Below are positions 9,405 to 57,813 of a stretch of DNA of 64,000 bases, piece by piece. The stretch's first letter is position 1. Every line of letters begins with the position of its first letter. The position numbers and the translations under genes were made by a program. This DNA is from a virus. The DNA lies in the IMG/VR virus record IMGVR_UViG_3300028920_000005, positions 1 to 64,000 of that record, one strand, 5' to 3'. Below the pieces are notes generated by a model. It was not told the DNA's origin, did no database searches, and worked only from the letters and a program-made list of their open reading frames with translations.

Positions 9405-9618
9405 GTGTTCGATACCTCCTAGGTGTTCGACTTGTTGCGTTCACATGTCTAGCCCACAAACGATCAGTCCCTCGGACAATCCTTCAGATAATCCTTTAGA
9501 CCAACCTCCTCCTCCGCCACACCCCATACAGAAGAGGGAGGAAGCCACTAGTCCTCCCTCTCTCTGCGGGTGGGCGATCAGGATCTTCTTCCCAACCGCC
9601 AAACCATATCAGGCTTCC

Positions 9619-10276: not shown

Positions 10277-10417
10277 TCAATTACCTCCGTCTGTACTCTT
10301 TAATCTCTTCCTCCACCTCCACCCCCTCCCTATACAGACGAGGGAGGCTAAGTCGGCAGTCACCTGCACCTCATACTCTCAGCCTCCCCCGTCCTGCGGG
10401 ATGGGATCTGTTCATCC

Positions 10418-10849: not shown

Positions 10850-10949
10850 TCTTCTTCCTCCTTATCAGATACCCAGTCCCATTGCACTTCTCACAATCAC
10901 CACCTCTCCTCCCCTTACATTCAGGACACTTCACATATCCAACGCTCAT
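10836..10949 (-). CDS. DnaJ-type CxxCxGxG zinc-finger mini-protein (37 aa, below the ORF-track cutoff)
   Basis: Hand translation gives MSVGYVKCPECKGRRGGDCEKCNGTGYLIRRKKNGGV. ATGA overlap with the upstream stop. Confidence 0.45.
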   Translation of the reverse strand: MSVGYVKCPECKGRRGGDCEKCNGTGYLIRRKKNGGV

Positions 10950-11173
10950 TCCCTCACCACCTTAATCATTACGTACGCCCTCTTCACATCATCCGTCTTG
11001 CACCCAATAACCTTCCTCACCACTATATCCTTGTTCTGCCGAATGATACTTCTCACTGTTCCCTCCACCATCTCTAACTCCTCCGACAGTTCCTCATAGG
11101 TGTACGCCGTTCCTGCATTCTTCGTCAAGAAGTCAATTACCTTCTTTACATTTGTTTCATGTACTCCATTCAT
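10946..11173 (-). CDS. winged-helix DNA-binding protein
   Basis: 75 aa. KKVIDFLTKNAGTAYTYEELSEELEMVEGTVRSIIRQN resembles an HTH followed by a wing. Confidence 0.5.
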   Translation of the reverse strand: MNGVHETNVKKVIDFLTKNAGTAYTYEELSEELEMVEGTVRSIIRQNKDIVVRKVIGCKTDDVKRAYVMIKVVRE

Positions 11174-11243
11174 TTGTTATCACCTCCTCAACACTTCGTA
11201 AAGCGTCGAGCGTCATAAGTAACTATATTCGATTGTCTGATAA

Positions 11244-11819
11244 CTACTTTCGGAATTCTGTATCCCAGCAGTCTCTACTATAACTAAGTTCGTACAGACC
11301 TCCATCCTCGTGATGTTCGTCTGCTTCAACCTTCAGTACTTCAATCATCACACTATAAATATACATACACTCTTCACCGCACGCTAAAGGCCCTCTTCCC
11401 ATGTTATGTGCTTCAACCTTCAAAGTGTAAGTGTTCTTAAATTCTGATTCAAGTATGCTAATTGCTTTCAGCGTATCATCAAGCACATTCAGGTATACAT
11501 GCAACTTCATTCTGCCTCCTACCTTCAATACCCTCCACATCTCACGTATGGCGCTCTCATCAGTGTATACCATTACGCAACAACTCGAATGTACTTCTTC
11601 GAACGACTCATCCTTAAATGGCAACTGTTCTCCATCCGCTGCCACATAAAGTCCTTCATGTTTCGTTCCACGCCACCCGTACCTTCCTTCTGCACCGAGG
11701 TCTACGATAGCGCAGTCGTCAGTATACGGATCGCTACCTGCTCCAACGTCAAGCTTCATACAATCAACCTTCCAATCAACTTTCCTTCTTCGCAAATTAA
11801 TATTGTCGGTAGAAAGCAT
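11244..11819 (-). CDS. class I SAM-dependent methyltransferase
   Basis: 191 aa. Motif I LDVGAGS, acidic loop IVDL, LPFKDESFEEVHSS, and post-III REMWRVLKVGG, typical of Methyltransf_11-like enzymes. Substrate unknown. Confidence 0.6.
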   Translation of the reverse strand: MLSTDNINLRRRKVDWKVDCMKLDVGAGSDPYTDDCAIVDLGAEGRYGWRGTKHEGLYVAADGEQLPFKDESFEEVHSSCCVMVYTDESAIREMWRVLKVGGRMKLHVYLNVLDDTLKAISILESEFKNTYTLKVEAHNMGRGPLACGEECMYIYSVMIEVLKVEADEHHEDGGLYELSYSRDCWDTEFRK

Positions 11820-11852
11820 TCCTGATCGGTTCTTCTTCCGTACATAATTCTT

Positions 11853-12524
11853 TCACCAATCCATCTTTCCTAATGACTCCTTAACTTCTTCCTCCTCCCA
11901 CATATTCCACCTAGGCTCCTTAACAGCCAACAGTATCTCATCCCATCCGATATACATAAACAGTCTTACCATCACTGGCGCGAATTGCGTATACTGTTTA
12001 CGTTCACTCTTCAATTCCTTAATCTTGCCTTTTAACTTCTTCTTATCGTCATACGAACTAACTTTATTCACCTTCTGTTCAATATTCATTATCTTGTCAC
12101 TCAGTGCTGCGTGTTCTTCCTGTGCTCCTGCTTTCCTACTCGGTATTCTCATCCACTGCAGTTTAGTGTCGTTATTACTATCCAAGTCGAACATATGCTC
12201 TCTGAACACCTGCCTACTGTATGAGTACAAGTATTTAAAGTCAGGCTTACAGTATTCTTCATTGTCCAAATACTTCTGTCTGTGTGCATTGCAAACGTAG
12301 TGCAGTACTTTTCGCTTCAACTGCCATTCAGCAACCCTCTCAACTCCGTGCTCCTTACATTCGGCACAAAATCTTACCGGCTTACCTTCAGGCTTCATAA
12401 AGTACTCCCACGTTTGTCTAAGCTCCTCCAATTCGGCCGCATCCCGTATTCCAAGTAACAGCGATTTATATTCAGCGTAAGTCTTAAATCCGTTTGCCTT
12501 CATACTCCATCCGGCCTTCTTCAT
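11853..12524 (-). CDS. hypothetical protein (first gene of the leftward block)
   Basis: 223 aa. CAEC...CNAH Cys/His pairs. AT-rich TATA-like box (12541-12550) about 20 nt upstream of the ATG. Confidence 0.55.
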   Translation of the reverse strand: MKKAGWSMKANGFKTYAEYKSLLLGIRDAAELEELRQTWEYFMKPEGKPVRFCAECKEHGVERVAEWQLKRKVLHYVCNAHRQKYLDNEEYCKPDFKYLYSYSRQVFREHMFDLDSNNDTKLQWMRIPSRKAGAQEEHAALSDKIMNIEQKVNKVSSYDDKKKLKGKIKELKSERKQYTQFAPVMVRLFMYIGWDEILLAVKEPRWNMWEEEEVKESLGKMDW

Positions 12525-22670: not shown

Positions 22671-23270
22671 ATGGACAGAATTGTTGTGGTGCAGGGTGAT
22701 ACGCCTGTATTTGAATTTACGATCCTTGACGCAAACGATAAGCCACTGGACTTGGGCCTCGTGTCCACGATAATTTTTAAGATGGCGAGGGTGGGAGAAG
22801 AGGATGGGCATGTGGCGGAAGTCTGTAGTATTTCTAATGTGCCCGGGACTGATGGAAAGTGTTACATAGGTCTGACGGCGGCGCAAACTGAAGATGATGG
22901 GGAGTATTTGGCCGAGGTAGAAATTCATATGAATACGGGCGAGATCCTTAGTCCGTTGCAGTTTACCGTTGGCATTGTGAATGAGGTCGATGAACCTAAA
23001 CTTGATACACCTGTTGTTGTGGATTTGGTTACGCCTAATGTGACTGGCGATTATCAGGTGGCATGGTCTACTGTTGATGATGCAACGAGTTATGTGTTGG
23101 AAGAAGATGATGGTACGGGGTGGTCGACAGTGTACAGCGGCCCCAACACATATTATGATGTGACTGGGAATACTGATGGCAGTTATTTTTATAGGGTTAC
23201 TGCGACAGCATCATATCATAAGAATTCGGACGTAAGCGATGTTGTAGGAATAACGGTGGATATTCCGTGA
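22671..23270 (+). CDS. Ig-like / fibronectin type III-like domain protein
   Basis: 199 aa. The N-terminal domain resembles 35072..35482. The C-terminal YQVAWSTVDDATSYVLEEDDGTGWSTVYSGPNTYYDVTGNTDGSYFYRVTA is FN3-like. Confidence 0.5.
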   Translation: MDRIVVVQGDTPVFEFTILDANDKPLDLGLVSTIIFKMARVGEEDGHVAEVCSISNVPGTDGKCYIGLTAAQTEDDGEYLAEVEIHMNTGEILSPLQFTVGIVNEVDEPKLDTPVVVDLVTPNVTGDYQVAWSTVDDATSYVLEEDDGTGWSTVYSGPNTYYDVTGNTDGSYFYRVTATASYHKNSDVSDVVGITVDIP

Positions 23271-24799
23271 ACTTGATTGGGCAATTAAGGAATGAATTAG
23301 AAGCAATGGAAGATGTTGTAGTATATACTCGGCAGATTTTGGGCATCGATTGGTTGTTTGAAAGACAGTGGAAAGTGCTTAAAGAGTTTTATAATAAGAG
23401 TCCAGATACAGGCCGAATGATTTTTAAAGATATGGTTTTATGTTGGGGGATGCGTAGTGGTAAGACAACGGAAGCTTCGATTATCGCCACATATGAGGGA
23501 TTTAAGCTTATACAAATGGGCACACCTTGTGCACATTATGGGTTACCGGCAGGGACAGAGATTTTCATCATCAATGTGGCTACTTCTGACAGGCAGGCGA
23601 AAGACACTGTGTTTGCACATATTAAAGCGAGATTCGAATATTCCAGATGGTGGAAGAACCAGAAAAAGATTGAAAGACATAACGAAATTGTCTTTCCCGT
23701 TCAGGATGGGAAGATTATATTTAGAAGTGAACATTCAAACTCTGCGTCGTTAGCGGGGAAGAATGTGATTTGTAGCGTTTTCGATGAGATGGCAAGATTC
23801 AAGCAAACTGGTGGAGTGGCTAGCGCCGAGATGGTGTATGATACCTTATCTCGTGGTGCGAAGACATTTAAGAAGGATGGTAAGCGGATTGCGATAAGTA
23901 GTCCTGTGTTGGTGGATGATTTCTTTTATGGCGAATTATATATGAAGGGCAAGAATGAACCTCAAGTTTATGTTGATCATGGTGCAACGTGGGAAGTTAA
24001 TGATACAATTGGAATGGAGGATCTTGAAGATGAATTCAGAAGGAACCCTGAGACAGCTATGCGAGACTATGGTGCAATCCCAAGTCATGCCATTGAGCGG
24101 TACTTTAGAGAATTTAATCGTATAGAGTTGTTGGAGAGAGGTACTCCGAATCCTAGAGTGACATTTGCGGAGCACAAGTTAGAGGATAATAGTATTGAGA
24201 TGTTGTGTGATATTAAGAATGTTGATGGGACGGATTGGAAAGGACAGCAAGGCATAATATATCATTCGGCCGGAGATCCTGCTGTGAAGAATGATGTATT
24301 TGGCTTTGCGTTAGGGCATAAGAGTCCAACTGGTATGCTCATGTGTGATTTGATATTTACGTTTGGGCATGATGATATGGGTAAGGATAACGATGGTAAG
24401 CAGATTAAAGAAGTTGATGCGAGGAAGGTTAAGGCCCTGGTGTTGGAGCTGAGGAAGAGATGTTTGTTGGCATGTTTTGTTACAGATATCTGGAACTTTC
24501 CTGAGACACTCCAGGAGATTAGGCGAAACGGAATTGAGGTAAGGCAAAATACTGTTGGCAAAAGGGAGTATGACCATTTCAAGGAGAAAGGGTATTTGGG
24601 AGAAGTGGATTTGCCGACTAATGCTTTGGTCTTGCATGAATTTGAGAATTTGGAAGTAATCAATCAGACGAAGGTCGAGCATCCGAGGACTGGGAGCAAG
24701 GACACTTCAGATGCGGTCGTGAACATGTTTTATAGCTTCCAGGAAAAGAGTAAGGCAATACGTGAGGAACCCGTAGCAGTATCTGTAGTGGTGGTATAA
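23267..24799 (+). CDS. terL: terminase large subunit
   Basis: 510 aa. Walker A CWGMRSGKTTEAS, Walker B VICSVFDEMARF, and a C-terminal nuclease-like block HSAGDPAVKNDVFGFALGH. Confidence 0.85.
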   Translation: MNLIGQLRNELEAMEDVVVYTRQILGIDWLFERQWKVLKEFYNKSPDTGRMIFKDMVLCWGMRSGKTTEASIIATYEGFKLIQMGTPCAHYGLPAGTEIFIINVATSDRQAKDTVFAHIKARFEYSRWWKNQKKIERHNEIVFPVQDGKIIFRSEHSNSASLAGKNVICSVFDEMARFKQTGGVASAEMVYDTLSRGAKTFKKDGKRIAISSPVLVDDFFYGELYMKGKNEPQVYVDHGATWEVNDTIGMEDLEDEFRRNPETAMRDYGAIPSHAIERYFREFNRIELLERGTPNPRVTFAEHKLEDNSIEMLCDIKNVDGTDWKGQQGIIYHSAGDPAVKNDVFGFALGHKSPTGMLMCDLIFTFGHDDMGKDNDGKQIKEVDARKVKALVLELRKRCLLACFVTDIWNFPETLQEIRRNGIEVRQNTVGKREYDHFKEKGYLGEVDLPTNALVLHEFENLEVINQTKVEHPRTGSKDTSDAVVNMFYSFQEKSKAIREEPVAVSVVVV

Positions 24800-26188
24800 A
24801 TGGGCATGTTTTCGAGAAAAGAGAAAGGCACAGAGGACAGCGAAATAATGCCTATGGGTAAGGCAATTAAAGAGGTGGGGCTTAGCGCAGGTGGGTCTGT
24901 GAATTGGGATTTCGAATCAATGTTCACGGACGGCGCTGGATGGCCACATGGTATTCACGATGAGATGGATGCGTACAAGAAGGTGGGGTTGGTAAGGACA
25001 TGTATTAATGTGAGAAGTTATTATACTCGCCGAGATGGGTATGAGGTGAAGGTTGAGCCTTATGATGCAGAGTTGAAGTCGTTTATAGATGATATGAATT
25101 TTAAGGTGAATTTGGGTAGGACGTCTGACGTATCTTTGACTAAGCGGCAGATCTTTGGCCGATGCGGTTGGGAGATTGTTTGGGGTGAGGTGGTTGTTGA
25201 TGGGCAGACGGTTAGGGGCATCGATTCGTTGTTGCAGTTGAAGAGTAAGGCGATTAAGCCGAAGTTCGATGATAATGAGCCCCAGAAGTTACTTTATTAT
25301 GATTATGCTGAAGCGACAAATGGAAGGTTGGATCCGAGGCAGGCTTTATACTTTGAGTTAGATTCACTGGATAGGGACAAAGTGGGTATATCAGGGGTGG
25401 ATAGCGTTAAGGATAGTGTGAATGCGAGGGTGAATTTGAATAGGGACCTGTTGGAAAGTTCTAAGAGGCTTTGGGCGCCGTTCGGGATGTTTAAGATGAA
25501 TACGGAGCAGTGGTTGGATCCTGCTGTGAAGAAGACAAAGATGGAGGAGTTTGCCAGGAGTATAATTCCTGGGAGGACTATTGTTTATAATACGGCAATT
25601 GAGGATAGCAAAGTTGTGGATCTTCAGCCGAATTTGATAAACTTGATTAGGTCGCTTGAGAAGGTGGATGAGGACATTATGGGCTTTTGGATGATACCAA
25701 AGGAGATACTTGCTAGGGGCAAAACTGTTAATAAAGCGACATTGACTGATGCCATGGAGGCCCTGTATGTTGGTCCCGTGAATGCGGATCAGTCGTACAT
25801 GAAGGAAGAGTTGGAGAAGCAGTGGTATCCTAAATTGGTTGCTATCTGGAAGCAAGCACACCCTGATAAGGCCAATAAGGTTTACAAGGTTCAGCATATA
25901 TGGAAGACGCAGAGATTCTTGGATCCGGCGCTAGTGAGGGCGTTTGCCTATGCGGTCAGAAATAAGGTCATGACGAGTAAGGCCTTTTTCGAGATTCTCC
26001 ATATCCCGATTGAAGAGGGATATATCCCTGAGACTGCGGCAGCACCAACTAAGGCGCAGCAGGCTAAGGGCGAATTGGAGGCGTTGATAGAGGAGGCTGT
26101 GGAGTTGGAATGGGGGGATTTGGCCGCGGCACAAAACAATACGCCTTCGTTGGGTGTGGAGGATGGAGCTAATGTGGAGGAAATTTAG
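24800..26188 (+). CDS. portal protein
   Basis: 462 aa, immediately downstream of TerL (stop/start abut). Size and position are typical. No specific motif verified. Confidence 0.6.
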   Translation: MGMFSRKEKGTEDSEIMPMGKAIKEVGLSAGGSVNWDFESMFTDGAGWPHGIHDEMDAYKKVGLVRTCINVRSYYTRRDGYEVKVEPYDAELKSFIDDMNFKVNLGRTSDVSLTKRQIFGRCGWEIVWGEVVVDGQTVRGIDSLLQLKSKAIKPKFDDNEPQKLLYYDYAEATNGRLDPRQALYFELDSLDRDKVGISGVDSVKDSVNARVNLNRDLLESSKRLWAPFGMFKMNTEQWLDPAVKKTKMEEFARSIIPGRTIVYNTAIEDSKVVDLQPNLINLIRSLEKVDEDIMGFWMIPKEILARGKTVNKATLTDAMEALYVGPVNADQSYMKEELEKQWYPKLVAIWKQAHPDKANKVYKVQHIWKTQRFLDPALVRAFAYAVRNKVMTSKAFFEILHIPIEEGYIPETAAAPTKAQQAKGELEALIEEAVELEWGDLAAAQNNTPSLGVEDGANVEEI

Positions 26189-26253: not shown

Positions 26254-28185
26254 ATGCCATTTTATAAAGGTGCACAGAAGTTATTCCCTGATATGAGTTT
26301 AAAGAGCCTTGCGCCACTGTGCAGGGAATTGCATATGGCCTGGGGGATTTGGCGTAGGCACGAGAAGTATACAGATAGTAAAGGTAATTCTTGGAGTAAG
26401 GAAGATTTCTATAACTTTTGGCGAAGTTTAAATTACAATCTCAAACAGAAAGGCGGCACAGGGTGTGTGATGTTGAAAGGGATGCCTACCAGTTTGACTT
26501 GTGTGAGTTGTTCGGAGCAAGAGCAGAAGGACCTTGAGAGTTTGTATAAGGGCATAGAGAGAGACTTCCCGTCTATGTCCTTGGAAAGATTGGCAAGGTT
26601 CTGTTTGGTGTTGCATATGGGATGGGGCACGTATCGTCAGTTTAAGAATTTTACTGATGTTAAAGGCAATGAATGGAAGGTAGAAGATTTCAGGAGAGTG
26701 CATAAAGTGCTTGATGAACAGATGAAGAAGAAAGGGGGAAAAGGTTGTAAGCCTTTTAACCCATTCGATGAACCAGCGACTAAAAGAGAGACGCCGTCAT
26801 ATCCTAGAGCGTCAAGCATGTCACGTTCGGGCAAATGTCAGGCACTTGTACTAAAGAATGGAAGATTAGCAACAATGGAGGATTATGATGAGATCTGTTT
26901 CTGCGACGGAACCTGTGTTGATATGGACAGTCGAAATTTCGAGGCAACCAGGCTCGAGTTGGATGGTCACGGGGCGAATCGCCTGTTGACGAGGGATGCG
27001 ACACCTGAGTTGAAGAAGGCGTGGCTTAGTGAGGGCGTGGATGTTAGATATGTGGATGAGGAACTTGAGCAGATGAATGCGTTAGATGATAGTGAGATGC
27101 CGATTAAGTTCTTTTTGGTTGGCGCCGAGAGGAGGGAGATTTCGAAGCTCGCCGATGGAGTGATGCTGAATGCCGTTCAAATCAAACAGGCAAAACAACT
27201 TGAGCCATGGAGGTCTGAGTTTAGAGGACAGATTATGTTGGATAATGGTATCTTTGGGGATACCTTACTTAATGTGGATGAGCTTGTCGGTAGGGTTCAC
27301 TCCGTTATGCCTGATATTGCTGTCGGCCCCGATGTGTTGTATGATCGCGATATCCATATTAAGTCGCTCAAACGACAGAAGGAGTTTCTCAGTAAGAAGT
27401 TGCCCAAAGAAGTAAGTGTGATGCTTGTGCCTCAGGGCAATACCTGTTTGGAGTTTGAGTGGTGTACGAAGCAGATACTGAAGATGAAGCCCGAGGTGAT
27501 AGGGTTAGGGAGAATGAGCATGAAGGTTGCTGGTTACCCTGGAAGGGGGCATAAGCAGCGGATTTATGCACTTAAGCGGTTGCAGGATTTGGGGATATTG
27601 GACGAGATTAAGAGTGAGGGGATCAGGATGCATGCCCTTGGGCTAAGCAAGCCGTGGGAGTTGCCTTACTTGAATAAGTTTGGATTTTATAGCATTGACT
27701 CCATGAGTTATATTTATAGCTCACTGTACAATCAGCTTGCGATGCCGGGTGATCCGACAGAGATGAGTTTCTCTGTGGTGAATGGACAGGTGAAGCAGAC
27801 CAGGAATATCGAAGATGATGTACATAGTAGAAGGGCGCAGTTTGTAAAGGAGTATCCACATAGTGGGAGTCTTGATGCGAGGCAATGGTGGATTGTGCAG
27901 AATGTGTGGAAGCCTATGAGTAAGATGAAGGCAACTGATTATCACATTATGAATTCGGTCAGGGACCTAAAGTTCGAAGACCGTGATGATAAGCCTATGT
28001 TGGAGAAGCCCACGAAAGAGGGCCTGTCGCATAAGGTATATCAGACGTTGCAAAATGACCAAGCCAGTGTGGGAGTTCCTGATGTGGATGCGATGGATGT
28101 TGCAAAGTTGAGTGACCGAGAGCTCCATCATTTACATCATTTGATGCATGTGGCCTGGAAACAGAAGGGCGCTGGAGGTGAGTAG
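26254..28185 (+). CDS. dpdA: DpdA/TGT-like transglycosylase fused to a duplicated N-terminal domain
   Basis: 643 aa. Residues about 290-560 carry, in TGT order, IMLDNGIFGD, VGPDVLYD, LVPQGNT, IGLGRMS, MHALGLSKP and YSIDSMSY. The N-terminus has two ~70-aa repeats (FPDMSLKSLAPLCRELHMAWGIW...KGNSWSKEDF...KQKGGTGC and FPSMSLERLARFCLVLHMGWGTY...KGNEWKVEDF...KKKGGKGC). Confidence 0.6.
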   Translation: MPFYKGAQKLFPDMSLKSLAPLCRELHMAWGIWRRHEKYTDSKGNSWSKEDFYNFWRSLNYNLKQKGGTGCVMLKGMPTSLTCVSCSEQEQKDLESLYKGIERDFPSMSLERLARFCLVLHMGWGTYRQFKNFTDVKGNEWKVEDFRRVHKVLDEQMKKKGGKGCKPFNPFDEPATKRETPSYPRASSMSRSGKCQALVLKNGRLATMEDYDEICFCDGTCVDMDSRNFEATRLELDGHGANRLLTRDATPELKKAWLSEGVDVRYVDEELEQMNALDDSEMPIKFFLVGAERREISKLADGVMLNAVQIKQAKQLEPWRSEFRGQIMLDNGIFGDTLLNVDELVGRVHSVMPDIAVGPDVLYDRDIHIKSLKRQKEFLSKKLPKEVSVMLVPQGNTCLEFEWCTKQILKMKPEVIGLGRMSMKVAGYPGRGHKQRIYALKRLQDLGILDEIKSEGIRMHALGLSKPWELPYLNKFGFYSIDSMSYIYSSLYNQLAMPGDPTEMSFSVVNGQVKQTRNIEDDVHSRRAQFVKEYPHSGSLDARQWWIVQNVWKPMSKMKATDYHIMNSVRDLKFEDRDDKPMLEKPTKEGLSHKVYQTLQNDQASVGVPDVDAMDVAKLSDRELHHLHHLMHVAWKQKGAGGE

Positions 28186-31100
28186 ATGAAAGTATTGCTG
28201 ATGTGGGAACATGCAAAAGCCCTTGCGAAAGAATTCAAGAGGGCCGGGCACGACGTCACCTTGATAAAGGACGAGAGCAGCTTTGGCCCTGATGAGAGGT
28301 TCGATGTTGTGTGGATCAGTCCACCTTGTTCTGGGCTGTCGAAGGCCGGGGCCTGGAAGCATTGGGACATTGAGGAGGATGTAAGGTATACTCCGATGAC
28401 GGCCGAAGCGAAGAGGACTACGAAGTTGCTTAAGGATGCCGTTGACTTTGTGAAGAAGTGTGGTGCCAAAGTTTGGTATATTGAGTTGCCTATGGGGTTG
28501 GCTAGGAAGTTTAGTTTTATGAAGGCGTTGCCTAGGAAGAATACGACGTTGTGTCAGTATGGGTTGGAGTTTCGCAAGGAGACTGACATTTGGACAAATG
28601 CCAAAGGTGAATTTTTGGAGTCTTGTGATCCTGGTGATGGGTGCCATAAGCCGCAGCCACGTGGGGTCAAGAAGAGTGGCAAAAACGCTGGGATCAATAC
28701 CAAATGGGCAGATAAGAGGGCGGTGCTGCCTTTGGAATTTTGCAAGGCGGTCGTTACCATGAGTGAGAAGACAATAGGTCGCGGCGAACTGATGAGTGTG
28801 AACTTGAGCCCTGATGAGGTCGTTAGGTGGCATGAGAGTATTGTTAGTGAGTTGGCGCGCCGGGGGCTAAGTGACCATGATACGCCGTTAGGGAATGATA
28901 ATAAGAGTAACTATCAGCAGCCTGCGCAGTCTGGTGTGGTTAGTGGGCCTGAGGTGACTTTGCAAGAAGTGCTTGGGTATTTTGGTGAGGCGAAGATAGG
29001 TAAGGGCCTTGTGATGTTAACCGGTGGGATCGTGAATAATGGCAAAAGTGTAAATGATATTGACATTCTTATTCGTATGGAAAAGGATGATCCGTTGTCT
29101 GTGCCTATACAGTTTAGGATCCTGAGAATGTTTCCCGAGCATTTGAGAGATAGGATACAGTTTATATTCAGTGATAGTGGCGGACAGCCCTTTACTTCTC
29201 ATATCCCGCTGTATGATGTGGATATGAAGTTGCAGAGCCCGTTGAAGAAAGTGGAGATGAGTAGGAAGGAATTGGAGGAGAGCGTCCAGAGGAGGAGTTT
29301 GCCTCCGAGTCGCGACGGGAAGTGTCCACCTGGGTATAAGTTAAAGGATGGCAAGTGTGTGTGGATGGAGGAAGCGAGTGAAGGGGGAGAGGTGGAAGAG
29401 TTAGAGAATAAGGAGGTTGATCTACAGAGTGTGCGGTGGCCTAAAGAAGAAGAGGCCCATCCTTTCGTGATGCAGATACATTTTAGGGGTGAGAGCGCGC
29501 ACCATGACTTTAGGGCCAAAACCAATGGGGAGTTGGAAGGGTGGAGTGTGTTTAGTCAGCCTGCAGGTCAGGTCAACGAGGATGTGAGTAATGAGGCCCA
29601 GGCGCAAGCGATAATTGCGAAGGTCGATTGGAAATGGCCTAAAGAAGAAGTACATGCTGAGGCGAGGCCTAAGACAGTGCAGCCTGCTGAATGGTTAAAA
29701 GTGTCTGGACACTTTGACCCTGGCCAGATTGGCGCGGGAAAGGACGTGGCTGGATTTATGCAGATAGTGGATCAGGGCAATGTTGAGTTTGGTGCTAGGA
29801 AGACTTGGTTTTATGAGTATTTTCTGCATGGGGCGAAGACTAAGGGCCGATTGGTGTTTAGGTATATTCCTAGGCAGAGGTCCACTAGTATTGCAGCGGC
29901 CGAGGAGTTGGCTCTTTGGGATTGGAACTGGGTTAAGTTCACAAGGGATATGTCCGAGAAGAAAGAGTTGAGTGAGGTGCCCAAGACACTTATGGAGTAT
30001 TATAATAAGCATAAGGGTGTGAATTCTGCCTACCAGGTAATGAGATATGCGAAGAAGAATGGGCTGACTGAGTTGGCAGAGACCTTTGAACAGCGCTTCA
30101 TGGAACATCAAAAGAGGGGGCAATCTTTTACCTACTCTGAAGAGTTACTGGAAGAACAGATTTCTGAGGCCGACACTAGTGACCTCCGAGACGTCTATAT
30201 GCGCATCTTTGATGTTATGGATAATAAAGGCCAAAAAGTGCTTCAAGACGACCTAGCGGTCTTTATTGACGTCCTCGAAGATGAATTGCTCGGGAGAGGG
30301 GCCTTACAGGATAGGAGGAGTGCAGGGTATTGGACCACGTGGTTGGCCAAGAGTGAGACTCCGTATGTGTTGACTCGAGCTGCAGTTAATGAGGAATGGA
30401 TACCGCCTTATGGGGTTAGTGCCTTGCCCAAAGAGGTAAGAGATAAGGTCCCTGAGAAGTATCAGTATTGGAAATTTAGCTCTAGGCAGCAGAGGCTAAA
30501 GGTAAGGGATGAGTTGCGAAAGGCAAAGGATGTTAAGCTTCATATTCGTAACTCTTATGATGAGAATCATCATGTAGTGGAGCATGAGGGCACAACATAT
30601 TTGGCCACTACTCTTTCGAAACCGGAATCTGAGGACATTACCTTCGCCGACGTTGAAGTGATGTGTAAGGTGGATTTGTCAGAACATGAGTATGTGTTGT
30701 TGCATCATTTTTGGAAAGGGCAACAGGTCGTGAGGGTTGGGCCAACTACGCAGCACTGGGATTTATTTATAGGCGATAATATGTGGGTCTTGGACACTGA
30801 TCCTTTGAAAAGTGCCTCGAATGCAAGTAGGCGTAGGCCTTATTCGAAGGGGTTTCAGGAGAGGGGTGCTAGTGGGCCTGAGTTCATTGAGCCCGGCACA
30901 CCTGGAAACCCGACCAAGAGTACGGCCGCATGGGTAACTAGAGTTGATAAGGGCAGTGTGCATATGCTCGAGGACGATGCACATTTTAAGAAGTTTAATT
31001 TGTCTGGCGGGAAGTTGAAAGGAACCTTTGTCCTGAAGCAAGAAGAACCGACTGTTAATTTGTGGAGGTTTGGCAAAGATCATGGGAGTAAGGCCCTATC

Positions 31101-31548
31101 GAAGGGAAATGTGGTGAAGCAGTATATTACGATGAGTACTGGCAAATCATATGAGAGGGATGGAAAGTTGTATGTTCCCGGCGATGCGCTGAGCTATGGC
31201 GTTTGGAACGGGGATTTCTATCCACCGGAGGTTATTGCAGATAGGCCTGAAAGGTTGAAGAGTAAAGCCACTAGTATTGTTTCACATAGGAACCGGAACA
31301 ACTATGGGAGTGTCGTTGAATTGAACTTTGACGAAAGCACTTCGACCATACACATAGTGGGCGAATTCGAGGGGGAGGAAGCCATAGAGAGGATCAAACA
31401 GGGCGACCTAATCGGCTATTCGGTCGAAGTCACTGTTGAAGTGGATGAGGACAGGCACATTGTGAAAAAGATATTGGACTACGACCGTGTTGTTCTGGTT
31501 CCTGACCCAGCCTGTGAGGTGTGCACAGTTGACGGTGTCTGCAATTAG
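28186..31548 (+). CDS. multi-domain polyprotein: C5-MTase-like + minimal nucleotidyltransferase + two LigD 3'-phosphoesterase-like domains + HK97-family prohead protease
   Basis: 1120 aa. Residues 1-195: DVVWISPPCSGLSKAG (motif IV PC), WYIELPMG, CQYGLEFRKETDIWTN, with no FxGxG motif I. Residues 270-345: LTGGIVNNGKSVNDIDILIR...IQFIFSD. Residues 425-565: FVMQIHFRGESAHHDFRAKTNGELEGWSV...GQIGAGKD...FLHGAKTKGRLVF. Residues 835-960: LLHHFWKG...QHWDLFIG...LSGGKLKGTFVL. Residues 985-1120: SHRNRNNYG...LIGYSVEV...VVLVPDPACEV. Confidence 0.65.
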   Translation: MKVLLMWEHAKALAKEFKRAGHDVTLIKDESSFGPDERFDVVWISPPCSGLSKAGAWKHWDIEEDVRYTPMTAEAKRTTKLLKDAVDFVKKCGAKVWYIELPMGLARKFSFMKALPRKNTTLCQYGLEFRKETDIWTNAKGEFLESCDPGDGCHKPQPRGVKKSGKNAGINTKWADKRAVLPLEFCKAVVTMSEKTIGRGELMSVNLSPDEVVRWHESIVSELARRGLSDHDTPLGNDNKSNYQQPAQSGVVSGPEVTLQEVLGYFGEAKIGKGLVMLTGGIVNNGKSVNDIDILIRMEKDDPLSVPIQFRILRMFPEHLRDRIQFIFSDSGGQPFTSHIPLYDVDMKLQSPLKKVEMSRKELEESVQRRSLPPSRDGKCPPGYKLKDGKCVWMEEASEGGEVEELENKEVDLQSVRWPKEEEAHPFVMQIHFRGESAHHDFRAKTNGELEGWSVFSQPAGQVNEDVSNEAQAQAIIAKVDWKWPKEEVHAEARPKTVQPAEWLKVSGHFDPGQIGAGKDVAGFMQIVDQGNVEFGARKTWFYEYFLHGAKTKGRLVFRYIPRQRSTSIAAAEELALWDWNWVKFTRDMSEKKELSEVPKTLMEYYNKHKGVNSAYQVMRYAKKNGLTELAETFEQRFMEHQKRGQSFTYSEELLEEQISEADTSDLRDVYMRIFDVMDNKGQKVLQDDLAVFIDVLEDELLGRGALQDRRSAGYWTTWLAKSETPYVLTRAAVNEEWIPPYGVSALPKEVRDKVPEKYQYWKFSSRQQRLKVRDELRKAKDVKLHIRNSYDENHHVVEHEGTTYLATTLSKPESEDITFADVEVMCKVDLSEHEYVLLHHFWKGQQVVRVGPTTQHWDLFIGDNMWVLDTDPLKSASNASRRRPYSKGFQERGASGPEFIEPGTPGNPTKSTAAWVTRVDKGSVHMLEDDAHFKKFNLSGGKLKGTFVLKQEEPTVNLWRFGKDHGSKALSKGNVVKQYITMSTGKSYERDGKLYVPGDALSYGVWNGDFYPPEVIADRPERLKSKATSIVSHRNRNNYGSVVELNFDESTSTIHIVGEFEGEEAIERIKQGDLIGYSVEVTVEVDEDRHIVKKILDYDRVVLVPDPACEVCTVDGVCN

Positions 31549-32095
31549 TTTGGAACTGCTTGAAGGCATGGTTTGCGGCATTACGGTGTCACAACGGGCA
31601 AAGGCCCAATTGGGCATACGCGCACACCCTTGGGCCGAGGTGCGGTGCGAAAGACCGGACCTTTTAGAGACCCTACAAGTTGAGTTGCTGGCGTTATCGA
31701 TTGGTTCCACAACATTGGGAACGCCAACCGATAAGCTTCGCATCCAGGGCATCAACAACTGTTCTTTGCTCACGCCCTACGTCCCAGAGAAATATGCCTG
31801 GTGGAATGAAGCAATGACCTTATTCGATGCAGGTGAGCATCGGACAAAAAACGGCCTATTAAAAATCCTACAGCTTCGCCCTGGCGAGCGGCTGCCTAAG
31901 AATCTGTGTTTCCTAAATGATTGAGAGACACAAACCCCAGGTCTGTGCCTCTCGTGGTTTTGGGTAAGACACTCAAACGCAGTATCATTATATAAAGAGA
32001 TTGGACTGTCGAACATTCCTCATACTACAGTCCACCTCCAGATTTTTCCCTCCCATTGGACTTTATATAGTCATAATGGATTCTTATGAATAGGT

Positions 32096-33208: not shown

Positions 33209-34033
33209 ATGGGTAAGATTCTCGTTGACTCTGATATTCCGGATGCACTGCTCGCTGAGACTGTCGTCGAGGAAATGCTGGGCTTAGCCCGCCAGAAGTA
33301 TACCCTGAGGCAATTCTGCCGTGTGATCAACTTTGGTCAGACGATCACCGGTAAGATACCCATTGGGACAACGCTGACTGGTCAGGAAAAGGTCAAGCCC
33401 CTCGTCGAAGCAGAGCTAGCCGCTGAGGCATACACTGAACTGGACTTCAATCTGTGGAAGAATGTCGTACACATCCTGGTACCGAAGGAGACGCAGCTCA
33501 AATCCAACATTGATCTCATGAAGATGAATGTTGAGGATGGATCCAAGGATTTGGCTCGCATGGAGAACAAGCAGATCTCTGAGGAGATTGCTACGTTCAC
33601 CGGTATTGGGGCAACTGCAACCTGGGATAATACCACTGGTGGGAATCCACTGGAGGATATAGCCGCTGCACAGAATGCTGTGGCAAACCTGGGTTATCTG
33701 CCCAAGGATGTGGTCATGCAGACAGACGTTTACCGATACTTCTCGGTGAACGACTACGTTGTAGCTGCCTATGAGCGTGGGGCCACCGTGAAAACGGGGC
33801 ACATACCCGCGGTCATGGGTCTGAATATCAGCGTAGAATATGCACTGGCTGCAAAGACAGCTTTCGTGGTGGATAAGGCAGCGCCTGCAATGGTTCTTGC
33901 CGATGGTCCTAACCTTGTGGAGCGGTACAAGAAGCCCGCCGTGTTCGCCGATGGATATGTTTCGGCCCAGTTTCTGGAGCCGAAGAAGGCCCTCGACGAT
34001 GCTGCAAGGCAGTTGACTGCGTGCATACCATAA
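33209..34033 (+). CDS. major capsid protein (HK97 fold)
   Basis: 274 aa. Position after protease, scaffold and decoration genes. Sequence style typical of small HK97-like capsid proteins (..LWKNVVHILVPKE..., ...GYVSAQFLEP...). Confidence 0.7.
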   Translation: MGKILVDSDIPDALLAETVVEEMLGLARQKYTLRQFCRVINFGQTITGKIPIGTTLTGQEKVKPLVEAELAAEAYTELDFNLWKNVVHILVPKETQLKSNIDLMKMNVEDGSKDLARMENKQISEEIATFTGIGATATWDNTTGGNPLEDIAAAQNAVANLGYLPKDVVMQTDVYRYFSVNDYVVAAYERGATVKTGHIPAVMGLNISVEYALAAKTAFVVDKAAPAMVLADGPNLVERYKKPAVFADGYVSAQFLEPKKALDDAARQLTACIP

Positions 34034-53352: not shown

Positions 53353-54159
53353 TCATGGGATCTTTACATTATTAGTTATGGCTCTTGCAACACCTTTCCA
53401 GTACTCAATGCTCGGATCACTCCTCCCCAGGGCCTTAAACCCATTGTTCCTCAGAACACAGGCATCACACTCTCCACACGGCAGCACCTCACCCTTATAA
53501 CAGCTCCAGGTAAACGCATAAGGGACCTTAACCTTAAAGCCCTCGCCAAACTGCACAATATCCTTCTTACCCATATACTGCAATGGGGCAATCACCTTAA
53601 TCGGCTTCCCCTCTACCGCTCGCTGTGAGCTAAGCAACGCCAACTCATTCCATCGGGCAATATACTCAGGCCTACAATCAGGATATCCTGAAAAGTCCAC
53701 ATGGTTAACGCCCACGGCCACAGCGTCAGCATCCATAACTTCAGCTACACTTAGCCCACAGGCAATAAACATAGTATTCCTGCCCGGAACATACGTCACA
53801 GGGATATCGCTCATCTCCTCTTCGGCCCTTCCTACCGGCACATCAATTCTCTCGTCCAGGAGTGCACTGCCTCCGATCCGCCTCATGAACCCAACATTAA
53901 GGATCATAGATCGGATAATCAAGTGGCCTTTATCACTCTCTTTAAAGTACTCTTTCACGCTCGCCATGGCCTTCAACTCCTTATCATGGACCTGGCCATA
54001 ATCAAACGCTACCAAAACCACCTCGATATCATTCTCAAGCAGCCACCCCAGAACGGTCGGAGAATCCAACCCCCCTGATATTGCGACTACCGCCCTCTTT
54101 ACCCCATCAACACACAACTTTGCATGTCCAATAGGATCCACTTCATTTATGCTTTCCAT
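53353..54159 (-). CDS. queC: 7-cyano-7-deazaguanine (preQ0) synthase QueC
   Basis: 268 aa. PP-loop AISGGLDSPT, FDYGQVH, YVPGRNTMF, DFSGYPDCRPEY, and C-terminal zinc motif SCY...CGECDACVLR. Collinear with QueC as I recall it. Confidence 0.9.
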   Translation of the reverse strand: MESINEVDPIGHAKLCVDGVKRAVVAISGGLDSPTVLGWLLENDIEVVLVAFDYGQVHDKELKAMASVKEYFKESDKGHLIIRSMILNVGFMRRIGGSALLDERIDVPVGRAEEEMSDIPVTYVPGRNTMFIACGLSVAEVMDADAVAVGVNHVDFSGYPDCRPEYIARWNELALLSSQRAVEGKPIKVIAPLQYMGKKDIVQFGEGFKVKVPYAFTWSCYKGEVLPCGECDACVLRNNGFKALGRSDPSIEYWKGVARAITNNVKIP

Positions 54160-54182
54160 TTTATCACCTGTTCTTTACTCAG

Positions 54183-54575
54183 TTAATCGGTTACACCTCT
54201 CAATAGCTCCTGCATCCTTTCCCGTTTCACAGGAGCGCCACCCTTCTCAAATAGGATCTGCCTCTGCTTCCCATAAGTAGAGGTCTCTACCTTCTCCACT
54301 TCAATCACAATCTTAAACGTAAACCTCATATCACTACCTTTCCTCATATACGTTACCTTCTCGCCCAACATCTCTGAGGCAAAGTCCAAGAGCCGCTGCC
54401 GTATTATATATTCCGCTGCAGGTTCAAACTTATCAACAATATGGCATGTTCCTATTTCAACTATCGCACGGCCATCCTTCCAGTTCTTTTGTATCTGGTC
54501 GTAATGCTTATCTTTCCATTCACGATACAATCTCATTTCTTTGTTCGCCTGTGTTATTCCATCAGTCATACTCAC
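54183..54575 (-). CDS. hypothetical protein
   Basis: 130 aa; no motif recognised. Confidence 0.45.
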   Translation of the reverse strand: MSMTDGITQANKEMRLYREWKDKHYDQIQKNWKDGRAIVEIGTCHIVDKFEPAAEYIIRQRLLDFASEMLGEKVTYMRKGSDMRFTFKIVIEVEKVETSTYGKQRQILFEKGGAPVKRERMQELLRGVTD

Positions 54576-54728
54576 ACAACCTTATCGCCGACTATAATAA
54601 TCTTTAATCATGGACTTATCTCCTTAAGAGGTCTTATGGCGGTCTTCACTTAAGTTTATCCTATATAGGACATACGGGGGTTTGACGTCAAAGAGAGGTC
54701 TTCAGCTATCATATAGCTATCCTCAAAT

Positions 54729-54983
54729 TTAGTCATTACCAGCCCCCTCTAAATGTAAAAACATCACCGTTATAAACCCCCCACCACGCGGTATACTATT
54801 CTGCAATACCTCAATTCCTTGCTTCCTTCGTAACATATATCCGTGATCTTTTGTGCCCAACGTCGGCCACCCCGCATTCACACAATATATTTCCACTTGG
54901 TAGTGTGCCTCATAGCCATTGTGCACATCACTTAAAGCTTTCAATTGTTGTTTGATTGTCTGGTCTAACATTTTGCTTCCCAT
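54729..54983 (-). CDS. hypothetical protein
   Basis: 84 aa; start uncertain (54983 or 54971); overlaps the UDG 3' end. Confidence 0.35.
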   Translation of the reverse strand: MGSKMLDQTIKQQLKALSDVHNGYEAHYQVEIYCVNAGWPTLGTKDHGYMLRRKQGIEVLQNSIPRGGGFITVMFLHLEGAGND

Positions 54984-55527
54984 CCTTCCAGTTACGGCCG
55001 AATTCCTTCCACATTGCGATCATGGTTTCCGTTCTAAGATGTCCTCTAACGTTAAAACTGGGGTGAAACATCGGGATAACATAGCACCCAAATTCCTCGC
55101 TCCAATGCCATTGGCCGCAAGCATCCGTAAGGCTTCCTTTAACTGGCCGCAATATACTCCAGGGCACACCGCCCAATGCAACAATAACTCTAGGTCGTAT
55201 GCGTTCAATCTCTCCCCTAAGGTGTAGCCGCATACACGTTCTTCTCCACGTCATCTTCGGAGTTTCATTTCCATCTGGTCTACATTTACAGACATTTGTA
55301 ATATAGAACTCCGATTCACTGATCCCCGACTCCGGGATACACGTCCCACGCAGTTTCCTGCCAGATTTCCCCATAAAGGGTCGCCCTTTTTCATCTTCCA
55401 CTGCTCCTGGCGCTTCACCAACTAACATAATGCGAGGACGTCCCTCACTTAGTTTTTCTCCCTTCACCATTCCTTTGTTCGAGCACAACCCCAAAGGGCA
55501 TTCCGCGCATTTCTCCCGGAATATCAT
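54928..55527 (-). CDS. uracil-DNA glycosylase, family 4
   Basis: The track start is 55575, but the ATG at 55527 follows GGAGGTG by 7 nt. CAECPL, MLVGEAPGAVEDEKGRPFMGKSGRKL and IPMFHPSF are UDG family 4 signatures. Confidence 0.75.
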   Translation of the reverse strand: MIFREKCAECPLGLCSNKGMVKGEKLSEGRPRIMLVGEAPGAVEDEKGRPFMGKSGRKLRGTCIPESGISESEFYITNVCKCRPDGNETPKMTWRRTCMRLHLRGEIERIRPRVIVALGGVPWSILRPVKGSLTDACGQWHWSEEFGCYVIPMFHPSFNVRGHLRTETMIAMWKEFGRNWKDGKQNVRPDNQTTIESFK

Positions 55528-56371
55528 CACTGAACACCTCCGCAAAAGCATTATGCACATGTATACTTTCCTCATTCTCTACCCTAATCCTATACCAGCC
55601 CAATCTCCTCTCCTCTTGATGCACAATCAATTTCTTCTTCACATCTCTTGCCACATCTTCCACGAACTTGGGATTATTATACGCGATATCAACGACCGCC
55701 GCTTCATCCACTCTCTTCAGTAACGGTACAATCGGCGCACTACCCGACAATATACACAGATGTGCCATGTCCTCGATCCACATAAAGTCGTACATTACCG
55801 CATCGACTGTGACCCAACTCCTCTGATTATGGGTATTTCCCGTTGTGCTTATCTCCTTTGAACAAGGACAACAGGTATGTACCGGCACCTTTACACTTAA
55901 CACCGGGTCATGGTAATCAGAGACAATAAATCTACACTGCAACGGCAACCATGATATTCTCTCTGTGGCTGGGCTTATAGTCCTGACCAAGTACTTAAAA
56001 CTCACTTCCATGTGCGCTTTCCTGGCTTCCATTACTTCTCTCAAATGTGGCTTCATATGGAGATTCATAACCTCTAATGTTATAGCCTCACTCTGGTACT
56101 CTTGCAATATCTCTATGAACCTACTCATGTGAGTCCCTTTGGTACCCGCCTCCACTTCAACATAAAGGTTCCAAGTACCATGCACCACATAACTATCCTC
56201 TTCCATTCTCCTAATCAACATCGGCCACTCCACGCCCTTAACCCCTACCTTATCGAGGGAAATCCCTGAATCTTCATTCCGCCGCTGAACATCCGGCAAT
56301 TCCTCTTTGCCTTTTTCGCTGATCGCTATTCTTTTTTTAACTGTTTTGATCATGTTTCCGTCTCCTTGCAT
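55445..56371 (-). CDS. folE2: GTP cyclohydrolase I type 2 (FolE2/MptA family)
   Basis: 308 aa. HTCCPCSKEISTTGNTHNQRSWV and C-terminal VENEESIHVHNAFA are FolE2 signatures. A ~30-aa tail extends beyond the usual end into the UDG gene. Confidence 0.8.
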   Translation of the reverse strand: MQGDGNMIKTVKKRIAISEKGKEELPDVQRRNEDSGISLDKVGVKGVEWPMLIRRMEEDSYVVHGTWNLYVEVEAGTKGTHMSRFIEILQEYQSEAITLEVMNLHMKPHLREVMEARKAHMEVSFKYLVRTISPATERISWLPLQCRFIVSDYHDPVLSVKVPVHTCCPCSKEISTTGNTHNQRSWVTVDAVMYDFMWIEDMAHLCILSGSAPIVPLLKRVDEAAVVDIAYNNPKFVEDVARDVKKKLIVHQEERRLGWYRIRVENEESIHVHNAFAEVFSDDIPGEMRGMPFGVVLEQRNGEGRKTK

Positions 56372-56603
56372 ACTGACATTCTTTCGCTATGTAATTAAAC
56401 TTTCCAACTAATTCCTTATCTGGAATCATCTCCCATCCATCTACCCACACAAATGTGGCCGTGTCCCTGTCCAAACCGGCTAAATCCTTATACCCCACAA
56501 CATACACAGCCTTAAACCTCTTACCCTCCTCCTCGTGCTCGTGCCTTACTATATCACACCAATATTTAAAGGCCCGATGTGTAGGTGCCAATACATAATA
56601 CAT
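56337..56603 (-). CDS. hypothetical protein
   Basis: The ATG at 56603 (MYYVLAPTH...) overlaps the QueE stop (TAATG) and follows AGAGGTG. 88 aa. Confidence 0.45.
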   Translation of the reverse strand: MYYVLAPTHRAFKYWCDIVRHEHEEEGKRFKAVYVVGYKDLAGLDRDTATFVWVDGWEMIPDKELVGKFNYIAKECQYARRRKHDQNS

Positions 56604-57271
56604 TACACACCTCTCTTCTTCGGGTCCCATATTATCTTATGCAACTGCAACTGCAGCCTTGCGCCTGGCACTGTATTCTTTACCCATTCGGCCAACTCAG
56701 GCAACTTCCAATCATTCCACTGTGGGCTTATGATCATACGGTCTCTAATCCTTCTGTTCTGGTACATCATTAAAACATCACTAAGATCAGACTTCTTAAC
56801 CACGAACTTTACTTCGTCATTATCGCCGATTACAGGCATTATCTTCTTGACAAAGTTCGCCTGATAGTCTCGAAAGTCTTTTATATCAATGAACGCACTC
56901 GGCAACTTAAAGTCATAAACTACTTTAACTAGTTTCCGAAGTTTCTCGCTAGGAACGATAGTGCCATTAGTCTCGATGCTATAATACTTTCCTGGCAGCA
57001 TCTCGACGATCTTTAACACATCATCCTGTTGTAGTAACGGCTCTCCGCCCGTGAAACATACATAATAGGCGTTATATTCCGCTATCTGGTGTGCAACATC
57101 TTCTGGATTGAAGTCAAATCCTTGCTGATCCCTTCTCCATCCTCCTTGCGCATAAGCCGTATCACAATACGTACACTTAAGATTACACCCCTGCAACCTC
57201 ACAAACACAGTCGGATACCCAACATATGTACTCTCACCCTGTATCGAGCAGAATATCTCATTCACATTCAT
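56603..57271 (-). CDS. queE: 7-carboxy-7-deazaguanine synthase QueE (radical SAM)
   Basis: 222 aa. IFCSIQGESTYVGYPTVFVRLQGCNLKCTYCDT is the QueE N-terminal CxxxCxxC cluster region. Confidence 0.85.
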   Translation of the reverse strand: MNVNEIFCSIQGESTYVGYPTVFVRLQGCNLKCTYCDTAYAQGGWRRDQQGFDFNPEDVAHQIAEYNAYYVCFTGGEPLLQQDDVLKIVEMLPGKYYSIETNGTIVPSEKLRKLVKVVYDFKLPSAFIDIKDFRDYQANFVKKIMPVIGDNDEVKFVVKKSDLSDVLMMYQNRRIRDRMIISPQWNDWKLPELAEWVKNTVPGARLQLQLHKIIWDPKKRGV

Positions 57272-57813
57272 TACACCACTTCCTCAAACGTTGAACTATG
57301 TAACTCAAACGATGCAAAACTCTTTGGGCCCTCCCACACATCCACATGCACCCAATATTCATACTCACTTCTCTGTGCAAGTAATCGTGCAAACCTCATG
57401 ACAAAATACCTTGCTATATTCTCACTCGTCACTGCGCCAAAGGCCATTGGGAATACAAATAGATCCTCTGTCGGAATCTCATAGTACTTGAACCCCTTAT
57501 CGGCAATCGTCATTATTGCCGTTGTATCATGTTCAGTCTCATGCAACTTAACATCACCTGTCTCTGGCCACACCTTTGCTTTCCCCTCATTATTCAGCAA
57601 CCCCGCAGCAACCACTATCTTGTGATCTAGCTCATTAATGACAGCCTTCAAATCAGAAAAATCCACCACCATACCATCATCACATATCTCACCCCTCATA
57701 ACCACCTTCACCGTCCAGGTATGTCCATGTAGTCTAAAGCACTTACTCTTCGGATCAGTATGTACGAAATGCGCCATACTAATGCTCTGCTCAGTTTCAA
57801 TCTTACTTTGCAT
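57271..57813 (-). CDS. queD: 6-carboxy-5,6,7,8-tetrahydropterin synthase QueD (PTPS family), long form
   Basis: 180 aa. MAHFVH...KCFRLHGHTWTVKV...GMVVDFSDLK...LDHK matches PTPS/QueD catalytic motifs. Confidence 0.8.
   Translation of the reverse strand: MQSKIETEQSISMAHFVHTDPKSKCFRLHGHTWTVKVVMRGEICDDGMVVDFSDLKAVINELDHKIVVAAGLLNNEGKAKVWPETGDVKLHETEHDTTAIMTIADKGFKYYEIPTEDLFVFPMAFGAVTSENIARYFVMRFARLLAQRSEYEYWVHVDVWEGPKSFASFELHSSTFEEVV

Follow-up and report, generated by a model that had tools for sequence, protein, structure and literature searches.

Enzymes that exchange guanine for 7-deazaguanine bases in DNA are described in the literature as bacterial DpdA (bDpdA) and DpdA1-4; each modified phage has one DpdA together with its pathway, and the modification is held to be post-replicative (PMC10516641). 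For the DpdA3 phages phiST, CP220 and immuto, complete replacement of guanine has been reported (PMC10516641). The literature searched gave no instance of a phage with paralogous DpdAs, and none of a DpdA gene placed in a head operon. Here we analyse such a case in the viral record IMGVR_UViG_3300028920_000005, using a stretch of 64,000 nucleotides (hereafter the window), which corresponds to positions 425-64424 of an 89-kb contig. The gene in question, an uninterrupted open reading frame (ORF) at 26254..28185 (+), encodes 643 amino acids from an ATG start and is preceded by a GGAGG ribosome-binding site 8 nt 5' of it. Its sequence identifies it as a probable member of a long-form clade, related to DpdA3, that had not been described before and is new in architecture as well as in context. 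This clade was probably recruited into the head-assembly operon of a group of uncultured tailed phages and is locked into it. The genome carries two very different DpdA paralogues.

A preliminary description of the gene had read the C-terminal half of its product as a tRNA-guanine transglycosylase (TGT)/DpdA barrel, and profile and structure comparisons both agree with this assignment. Using hhalign, the window family aligned to DpdA3 over 204 columns (99.94% probability, E 8.1e-37). With an AlphaFold2 (AF2) model as query (predicted local distance difference test, pLDDT, 75-92 in the barrel core), Foldseek returned the DpdA structure 7UI4 as best match in the PDB (E 3.4e-7), and all 50 listed PDB matches were DpdA, TGT, arcTGT, QTRT1 or Cap10 (probability 1.00, E 3e-7 to 4e-6). 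Among the viral structures of BFVD, phiST DpdA3 (M4SLA5) gave the highest TM-score (TMt 0.70). Foldseek, hhalign and profile searches place the DpdA3-related TIM barrel of the TGT superfamily at residues 285-585 (27106..28008, +), which by alignment is also the core conserved across relatives (~285-585); its last part, residues about 495-585, is a helical C-terminal extension specific to the family.

Simpler searches returned little. A Pfam scan of the protein found no family at E <= 1, including PF01702 (TGT), while NCBIfam DpdA (NF041059; 13.5 bits versus a cut-off of 200, E 0.024) and phrog_887 'queuine tRNA-ribosyltransferase' (E 0.033) gave sub-threshold hints covering the same residues. 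No match was obtained by tblastn against 50,697 phage genomes and no relative in a scan of 185,579 reference genomes. The profile of the whole family had no match among PDB sequences until DpdA3 sequences were added; the joint profile then matched the 7UI4 sequence (E 1.4e-5). The predicted membership in the superfamily is established solely by profile-profile and structure comparison. Since the clade lies below the thresholds of Pfam, NCBIfam and PHROGs, it is missed by surveys that use DpdA as a signature of 7-deazaguanine modification.

Eight relatives of the window protein, 34-69% identical to it, were found by homology search. A profile search of 1.84 billion representatives extended this to 408, a few of them close and the rest forming a cloud of 240-280-aa proteins; in hmmsearch of that library with the window family profile, DpdA3-like proteins reached E 1e-17. 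Judged by sequence, the cloud is the DpdA3 subfamily, since P0015 matches phiST CGPG_00065, the CP21_069/CPt10 group and immuto_2-6A gp206; Hutinet et al. (2023) named the proteins of phiST (CGPG_00065), the Campylobacter CP21 group and Flavobacterium immuto_2-6A DpdA3 (PMC10516641). In a neighbour-joining distance tree, the long head-operon family formed a clade of its own on a long stem, apart from the DpdA3 cloud. With DpdA3 it shares a minimal TIM-barrel core without zinc subdomain, the motifs DNG, PD, QG, IG, HxLG and DS, and a host phage that carries preQ0 synthesis genes. However, it scores at best about 80 bits against DpdA3, compared with more than 320 within the family. DpdA3 is a compact single-domain protein of ~240-270 aa encoded beside Que genes, whereas the window protein has 643 aa and several domains. 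Members of the long family are 2-6 times longer than DpdA3 and comprise one or more N-domains, a linker and a conserved C-terminal extension of ~90 residues, sometimes with fusions to nucleotidyltransferase (NTase), ligase or phosphoesterase (PE) domains. They always lie between portal and capsid genes and, in the window genome, the long form coexists with an ordinary DpdA3.

The active site can be followed through the whole family. Six TGT-type motifs had been proposed in canonical order, and all were found in that order: LDNGIFG (residues 329-335), GPDVLYD (358-364), VPQGNT (392-397), IGLGRMS (416-422), HALGLSKP (460-467) and IDSMSY (481-486). In the bDpdA structure, Asp95 acts as acid/base and Phe99 as gate, Asp130 and His181-Gly182 recognize the base, and Gly206-Gly207, Leu236 and the nucleophile Asp256 complete the site (PMC10164549). 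As the superfamily criterion we used three aspartates, which are Asp95, Asp130 and Asp256 in bDpdA and Asp102, Asp156 and Asp280 in TGT. In the window protein, these correspond to Asp330 (codon 27241..27243, +), the predicted general acid/base, Asp360 (27331..27333, +), the predicted base-recognition residue, and Asp482 (27697..27699, +), the predicted nucleophile. In the HMMER alignment, the Asp of the family 'DS' motif falls on residue 276 of the 7UI4 chain, which is Asp256 after a 20-residue tag, the Leu of HxLG falls on Leu236 and QG on His181-Gly182. By motif order, spacing and the DpdA3 alignment, Asp330/Phe334 would correspond to Asp95/Phe99 and Asp360 to Asp130; Phe334 follows Asp330 at the same four-residue distance as in bDpdA (PMC10164549).

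Conservation of the catalytic aspartates, the check suggested by the preliminary description, was complete: Asp330, Asp360 and Asp482, along with Phe334, Gln394, Gly395 and Leu462, are invariant in the nine-sequence family alignment and kept in the six family cores of a 42-sequence alignment. Across all 42 family and DpdA3 sequences, Asp360, His460, Leu462 and Gly463 are invariant and Asp330, Gln394, Gly395 and Asp482 nearly so. In one relative (P0014), an intein is inserted directly after LDNGAF. Because the active-site residues are conserved and an intein occupies this motif, the enzyme is very probably active with the double-displacement chemistry of TGT and DpdA. The canonical C-terminal CxCxxC zinc motif is absent from all family members and from three DpdA3 references, and its absence is therefore normal for the DpdA3 branch.

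The best structural match, DpdA of Salmonella Montevideo (7UI4; PMC10164549), shares with the window family the equivalents of Asp95/Phe99, Asp130, Gly182, Leu236 and Asp256, which implies the same double-displacement chemistry on DNA. But identity is about 15%, the family has Gln in place of His181, and the window system lacks the DpdB partner and the dpd restriction cluster and has other accessory domains. A relation to DpdA4 (DUF6610, PF20314; HVTV-1) is suggested by weak Pfam matches of P0011 (E 0.004) and of 3 of 37 DpdA3-like proteins (best 7.6e-7); the window protein, in contrast, has no DUF6610 match at E <= 1, and DpdA4 is specific to archaeal viruses.

The preliminary description had taken the gene to be the DpdA of its genome, and this did not hold. 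About 3 kb past the window end, on the arm and strand of the preQ0 genes, a canonical short DpdA3 of 240 aa is encoded (window-equivalent 67124-67846, -, which is 5901-6623 of locus L016; profile E 6e-31); its neighbour is the gene of a family-B DNA polymerase (PolB) that contains an intein. The short protein carries the motifs LLDNGAFE, LPDD, LHGQ, IHYLGL and SLDTS, with HG as in bacterial DpdA where most DpdA3 have QG, and in the distance tree it falls inside the DpdA3 cloud. The two paralogues share only ~30% identity over 56 residues. Because a canonical short DpdA3 is present in the same genome, the window protein is a second, divergent paralogue. The adjacency of short DpdA3 and PolB recurs in a close relative (L017); the sample that yielded L017 also contains a head-operon gene with 66% identity (L008). 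Of 32 ordinary DpdA3 loci, none adjoins a portal gene, and in most of them Que genes occur at most 10 kb away.

The preQ0 genes had been noted 25 kb away on the opposite strand, and they are indeed found there, at 53.3-57.8 kb (-). The cluster (53353..57813, -; Pfam) comprises QueC (53353-54159; 3e-62), FolE2 (55445-56371; GCHY-1, 1e-70), QueE (56603-57271; Radical_SAM/Fer4_12) and QueD (57271-57813; PTPS, 4e-23), and likely supplies the base substrate. It also includes a gene for a glycosylase of the uracil-DNA glycosylase superfamily (54928-55575, -), located between QueC and FolE2.

The long-form gene, in turn, sits among head genes. Directly 5' of it lies the portal gene (24800..26188, +; Pfam Phage_portal 5.9e-5, below gathering), whose syntenic orthologues match Phage_portal in four relatives according to precomputed annotation (L006, L014, L132 and L133), and upstream of that the large terminase (TerL; 23267-24799; phrog_17415, 3e-16). 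On the 3' side, the polyprotein gene is followed by two ORFs, the first scaffold-like with a coiled coil and the second small and cement-like, and then by the gene of the major head protein (33209-34033; phrog_1650, 5e-10). The slot had been described as lying between portal and prohead protease; the head-operon position and its portal side were borne out, while the protease label found no support in Pfam, PHROG or PDB sequences. The same order (TerL, portal, DpdA-like, polyprotein, scaffold, cement, capsid) was observed in 10 distinct contigs, and head-operon placement is therefore a trait of the family. In 10/10 family loci, no Que gene was found within 10 kb of the head-operon gene. One relative has a phosphoribosyltransferase (PF00156) gene directly 3' of the DpdA-like gene (L130 7094-7672, L131 3853-4431). 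Such an enzyme, which is also encoded in the deazaguanine cluster of immuto_2-6A (L002 3783-4178), might recover the purine base that exchange sets free. In the head module, scans for promoters and terminators gave nothing above shuffle expectation. We considered mycobacteriophage Orion ('singleton DpdA') as a precedent for a DpdA in a structural module and rejected it: its gene follows the major tail protein gene on the opposite strand.

The TAG stop of the DpdA-like ORF abuts the ATG of the polyprotein ORF at 28186, an arrangement that indicates translational coupling. The polyprotein (28186..31548, +; 1120 aa) comprises methyltransferase (MTase)-like, NTase-like, two LigD-phosphoesterase-like and C-terminal His/Ser domains. 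Its N-terminus resembles C5-MTases, and the match to the DNA methyltransferase family phrog_757 (4e-12) bears out the MTase-like neighbour noted earlier; this region has a PPC motif and no obvious glycine loop for binding of S-adenosylmethionine (AdoMet). A nucleotidyltransferase motif of the pol-beta type reads GGIVNNGKSVNDIDILI. The two phosphoesterase-like domains (HHDFR, HWDLFI) gave weak but recurrent matches, with Pfam LigD_N at E 0.005, NCBIfam TIGR02777 at E 0.0012 and, for the family profile against the PDB, the phosphoesterase structures 3P43 and 3P4H at 0.01-0.06 (3P43 E 0.011). In relatives, the polyprotein usually has an ATP-dependent DNA ligase domain as well (Pfam 1e-24 to 1e-27; PDB 5e-17). 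In the C-terminal domain, which occupies the protease slot, an invariant His58 is followed in the right order by an invariant Ser103, residues 1034 and 1079 in the numbering of the window ORF, along with PACxxC; its matches to polyubiquitin were discarded as artefacts. A small ORF of 135-145 aa (31487-31924, + in the window), read in a different frame, shares sequence with the 3' end of the polyprotein gene and is conserved in several relatives, with syntenic counterparts at L014 7992-8408 and L132 10107-10514.

Two relatives encode DpdA-like barrel and polyprotein in one continuous reading frame, as a fusion (P0010, 1652 aa; P0012, 1591 aa). The NTase-like module, part of the polyprotein in the window, lies inside the DpdA-like protein in P0005 and P0013. 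Such domain shuffling between two adjacent, translationally coupled genes argues that their products act jointly, and the in-frame fusions make a coupling to packaging or encapsidation more plausible.

N-terminal to the barrel, the tandem duplication of an unrecognized domain that had been reported from the sequence stood up to analysis. Copy 1 (residues 1-74; 26254..26475, +) and its tandem duplicate copy 2 (residues 93-168; 26530..26757, +) match the hidden Markov model (HMM) of the N-domain with independent E values (i-E) of 9e-34 and 5e-33, respectively. They align over 68 ungapped columns with a Smith-Waterman score of 187 (versus 25 +/- 4.8 for shuffled sequences; z = 33, 0/2000 shuffles). 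The AF2 model shows three helices and a short hairpin (pLDDT 96), and a fold search against the PDB gave no significant match (best E 1.9). While P0002 also has two copies, the domain is single in P0005-P0010, P0032 and P0096. A search for the repeat away from the barrel was also successful, since P0032 and P0096 are barrel-less proteins headed by it. Because it is single in distant relatives and heads proteins without a barrel, the N-domain is an independent module. The Pfam family PF03013 Pyr_excise (T4 endonuclease V family) matches 3 of 10 N-domain copies (best 3.3e-6), none of them a window copy. This link to T4 endonuclease V is unproven, because the fold search lends it no support and the Glu of 'RELH', equivalent to the catalytic Glu23 of endonuclease V, varies among N-domain copies. 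Profile matches of the N-domain to designer pentatricopeptide repeat (PPR) proteins in the PDB were rejected as short-repeat artefacts.

Between N-domains and barrel lies a cysteine cluster, C195...C215-x-C217-xxx-C221 (26836..26916, +), a possible zinc knuckle. The CFCDGTC described earlier is present at residues 215-221. That it is a relocated TGT zinc site is not borne out, as DpdA3 proteins are without the CxCxxC zinc motif and CxCxxxC occurs only in P0001-P0003, the three closest relatives; AF2 pLDDT is about 50 at the cluster. We consider the duplicated N-domain and the Cys cluster most likely to be DNA-binding or partner-docking modules.

The C-terminal tail (LHHLHH...GAGG, residues 624-642) had been described as a partial echo of the N-terminal motif. 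The N-domain HMM does match residues 614-636 (28093..28161, +) with its positions 9-31, covering the first helices only, at a marginal i-E of 0.008; the match recurs in P0002-P0004 (i-E 0.001-0.1). Pairwise comparison of the tail with the N-domain was not significant (z about 2.1-2.5). In P0010, the equivalent of the tail is the linker into the fused polyprotein.

How might the two paralogues divide the work? Following the chemistry of the superfamily, Asp482 of the long form would attack C1' of deoxyguanosine in duplex DNA and Asp330 would protonate the guanine as it leaves; the enzyme would then stay covalently bound to the DNA until a 7-deazaguanine base, made by the FolE2/QueD/QueE/QueC pathway of the phage, resolves this intermediate. 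Bulk modification during replication is probably the task of the short DpdA3 encoded next to the polymerase. Its head-operon paralogue would be expressed late, together with portal and capsid genes, and probably either works on DNA during packaging or afterwards, or enters the prohead with the polyprotein. The NTase-like, phosphoesterase-like and, in relatives, ligase domains of the polyprotein may then heal and seal nicks or abasic sites arising from abortive exchange or from host nucleases. We give an even chance to this combined reading, in which the short DpdA3 serves the replication phase, the long form works late at or after packaging or in the capsid, and its partner heals the damage. 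An active head-operon enzyme could mean that exchange occurs in stages, coupled first to replication and then to packaging, or that it is carried by the virion. In either case, the route by which some phages reach complete guanine replacement and the handling of abortive transglycosylation damage would become testable.

Several points weigh against this division of labour. Timing, substrate, encapsidation and activity of the long-form enzyme are what we infer here, and the activity of DpdA3 itself has so far not been reconstituted in biochemical work (PMC10516641). The sequence examined covers all but about 15 kb (74.2-89.2 kb) of the 89-kb contig. The window polyprotein is without the ligase domain of its relatives. 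Its C-terminal domain has no Pfam, PHROG or PDB-sequence match to a prohead protease (Peptidase_S78/U35), and since the protease assignment is without profile support, the argument for capsid cargo is weakened. No QueC match was found on large contigs of distant relatives among the best 120; in the QueC alignment scan, the best 80 of at least 538 loci did not include the 78-kb contig of a relative, and the scan of relatives for short DpdA3 was keyed on the LDNGAFE pattern. The link to 7-deazaguanine may therefore hold only in the window lineage and not in distant carriers of the head-operon gene.

A more specific proposal, which we put forward tentatively and hold to be less probable than the combined reading, is that the head operon encodes an encapsidated machine for base exchange and repair, made up of a DpdA-type transglycosylase together with nucleotidyltransferase-, 3'-phosphoesterase-, ligase- and methyltransferase-like domains. 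The protease-like C-terminal domain of the polyprotein would target this machine to the capsid interior, and it would modify, proofread or repair DNA during or after packaging, or be co-injected and protect the genome at entry. If true, this would be the first DNA hypermodification enzyme found as virion cargo.

The locus also invites comparison with polyvalent proteins, for which packaging and delivery along with the DNA have been proposed (Iyer et al. 2017, PMC5512222). Like those effectors (fusions to MuF/SPP1 gp7, Dar proteins of P1), the window locus encodes very large, portal-adjacent multidomain proteins that combine DNA-modifying and nucleic-acid-processing domains. But no MuF, MPTase or other hallmark domain was detected in it, and its C-terminal domain lies in the prohead-protease slot. 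The polyvalent-protein survey makes no mention of TGT, queuine or deazaguanine (PMC5512222); the long-form clade adds a new enzymatic domain to the portal-adjacent multidomain proteins of phages. An enzyme of this kind might be an early effector, packaged and injected with the DNA and with polyprotein fragments, that works in the newly infected cell, where it re-modifies and repairs incoming phage DNA cut by host nucleases or attacks host DNA as a glycosylase. Packaged MuF-type and polyvalent effectors occupy the portal-scaffold slot (PMC5512222), the fusions in relatives join the barrel to ligase and phosphoesterase-like end-healing domains, the window polyprotein has its MTase-like domain, and some phages with a member of the family may lack Que genes nearby. 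However, Pfam and PHROG scans found neither MuF nor another known capsid-targeting domain, and exchange requires free 7-deazaguanine, which early in infection could only be host-derived. Packaging, too, is something we infer here, and we regard an ejected effector as unlikely.

Somewhat more doubtful still is that the window gene, merely oddly placed, is the DpdA by which this phage inserts preQ0-derived bases throughout its genome. The genome does hold a complete preQ0 pathway, the catalytic residues are intact, and it is the window protein that has the QG typical of DpdA3 where the short paralogue has HG. But the 240-aa DpdA3 already described (E 6e-31), beside PolB and on the arm and strand of the Que genes, has the layout of most of the 32 DpdA3 loci; this arrangement is repeated in the close relative L017, and none of the head-operon loci has a Que gene within 10 kb.

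Two further explanations have very little in their favour. A barrel that lost catalysis and was exapted as a minor head or assembly protein would suit the head-operon location and the lack of a Pfam family at threshold, but it is highly improbable given that all catalytic and base-binding residues stay unchanged among proteins of 34-66% identity, that the intein of P0014 sits in a catalytic motif and that the phosphoribosyltransferase neighbour in L130 points to base chemistry. Equally implausible is a transglycosylase acting on host or phage tRNA instead of DNA: this is the founding activity of the superfamily and the TGT matches in Foldseek score about as well as the DpdA match, but by sequence the window protein is closest to the DpdA3 of phages whose DNA is fully modified, it has neither a PUA nor a zinc subdomain, and the fusion partners are DNA ligase, LigD-PE-like and DNA-MTase-like domains.

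Further features were noted in the course of the analysis. This phage group has an unusual number of inteins or LAGLIDADG insertions, which occur in the DpdA-like gene, a portal, a large terminase and the DNA polymerase (sites in P0013 and P0014 and at L130 2630-4888, L134 133-1944 and L016 6648-10004). The coding strand of the window is extremely poor in C (12.5-16.8% C versus 28-33% G), most strongly at 1-12000 and 53300-64000, and GC skew, at 0.35-0.63 across the window, tracks the direction of transcription; in the ORF at 3646-4917, C makes up only 3.5% of third codon positions. The skew has the same sign but is milder in relatives and in other DpdA3 phages (median 0.14). One possibility is that a C-poor coding strand keeps modified guanines off the template strand. 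On the left arm of the window, genes at 7-600, 3054-3641, 3646-6154 and 11244-11819, all on the minus strand, encode a DJ-1/PfpI protein (class I amidotransferase-like), a ThiF/E1-like adenylyltransferase, two family-less proteins of ~420 aa and a SAM (S-adenosylmethionine) methyltransferase. The left arm may be another module for nucleotide or DNA modification, perhaps for further processing of 7-deazaguanine.

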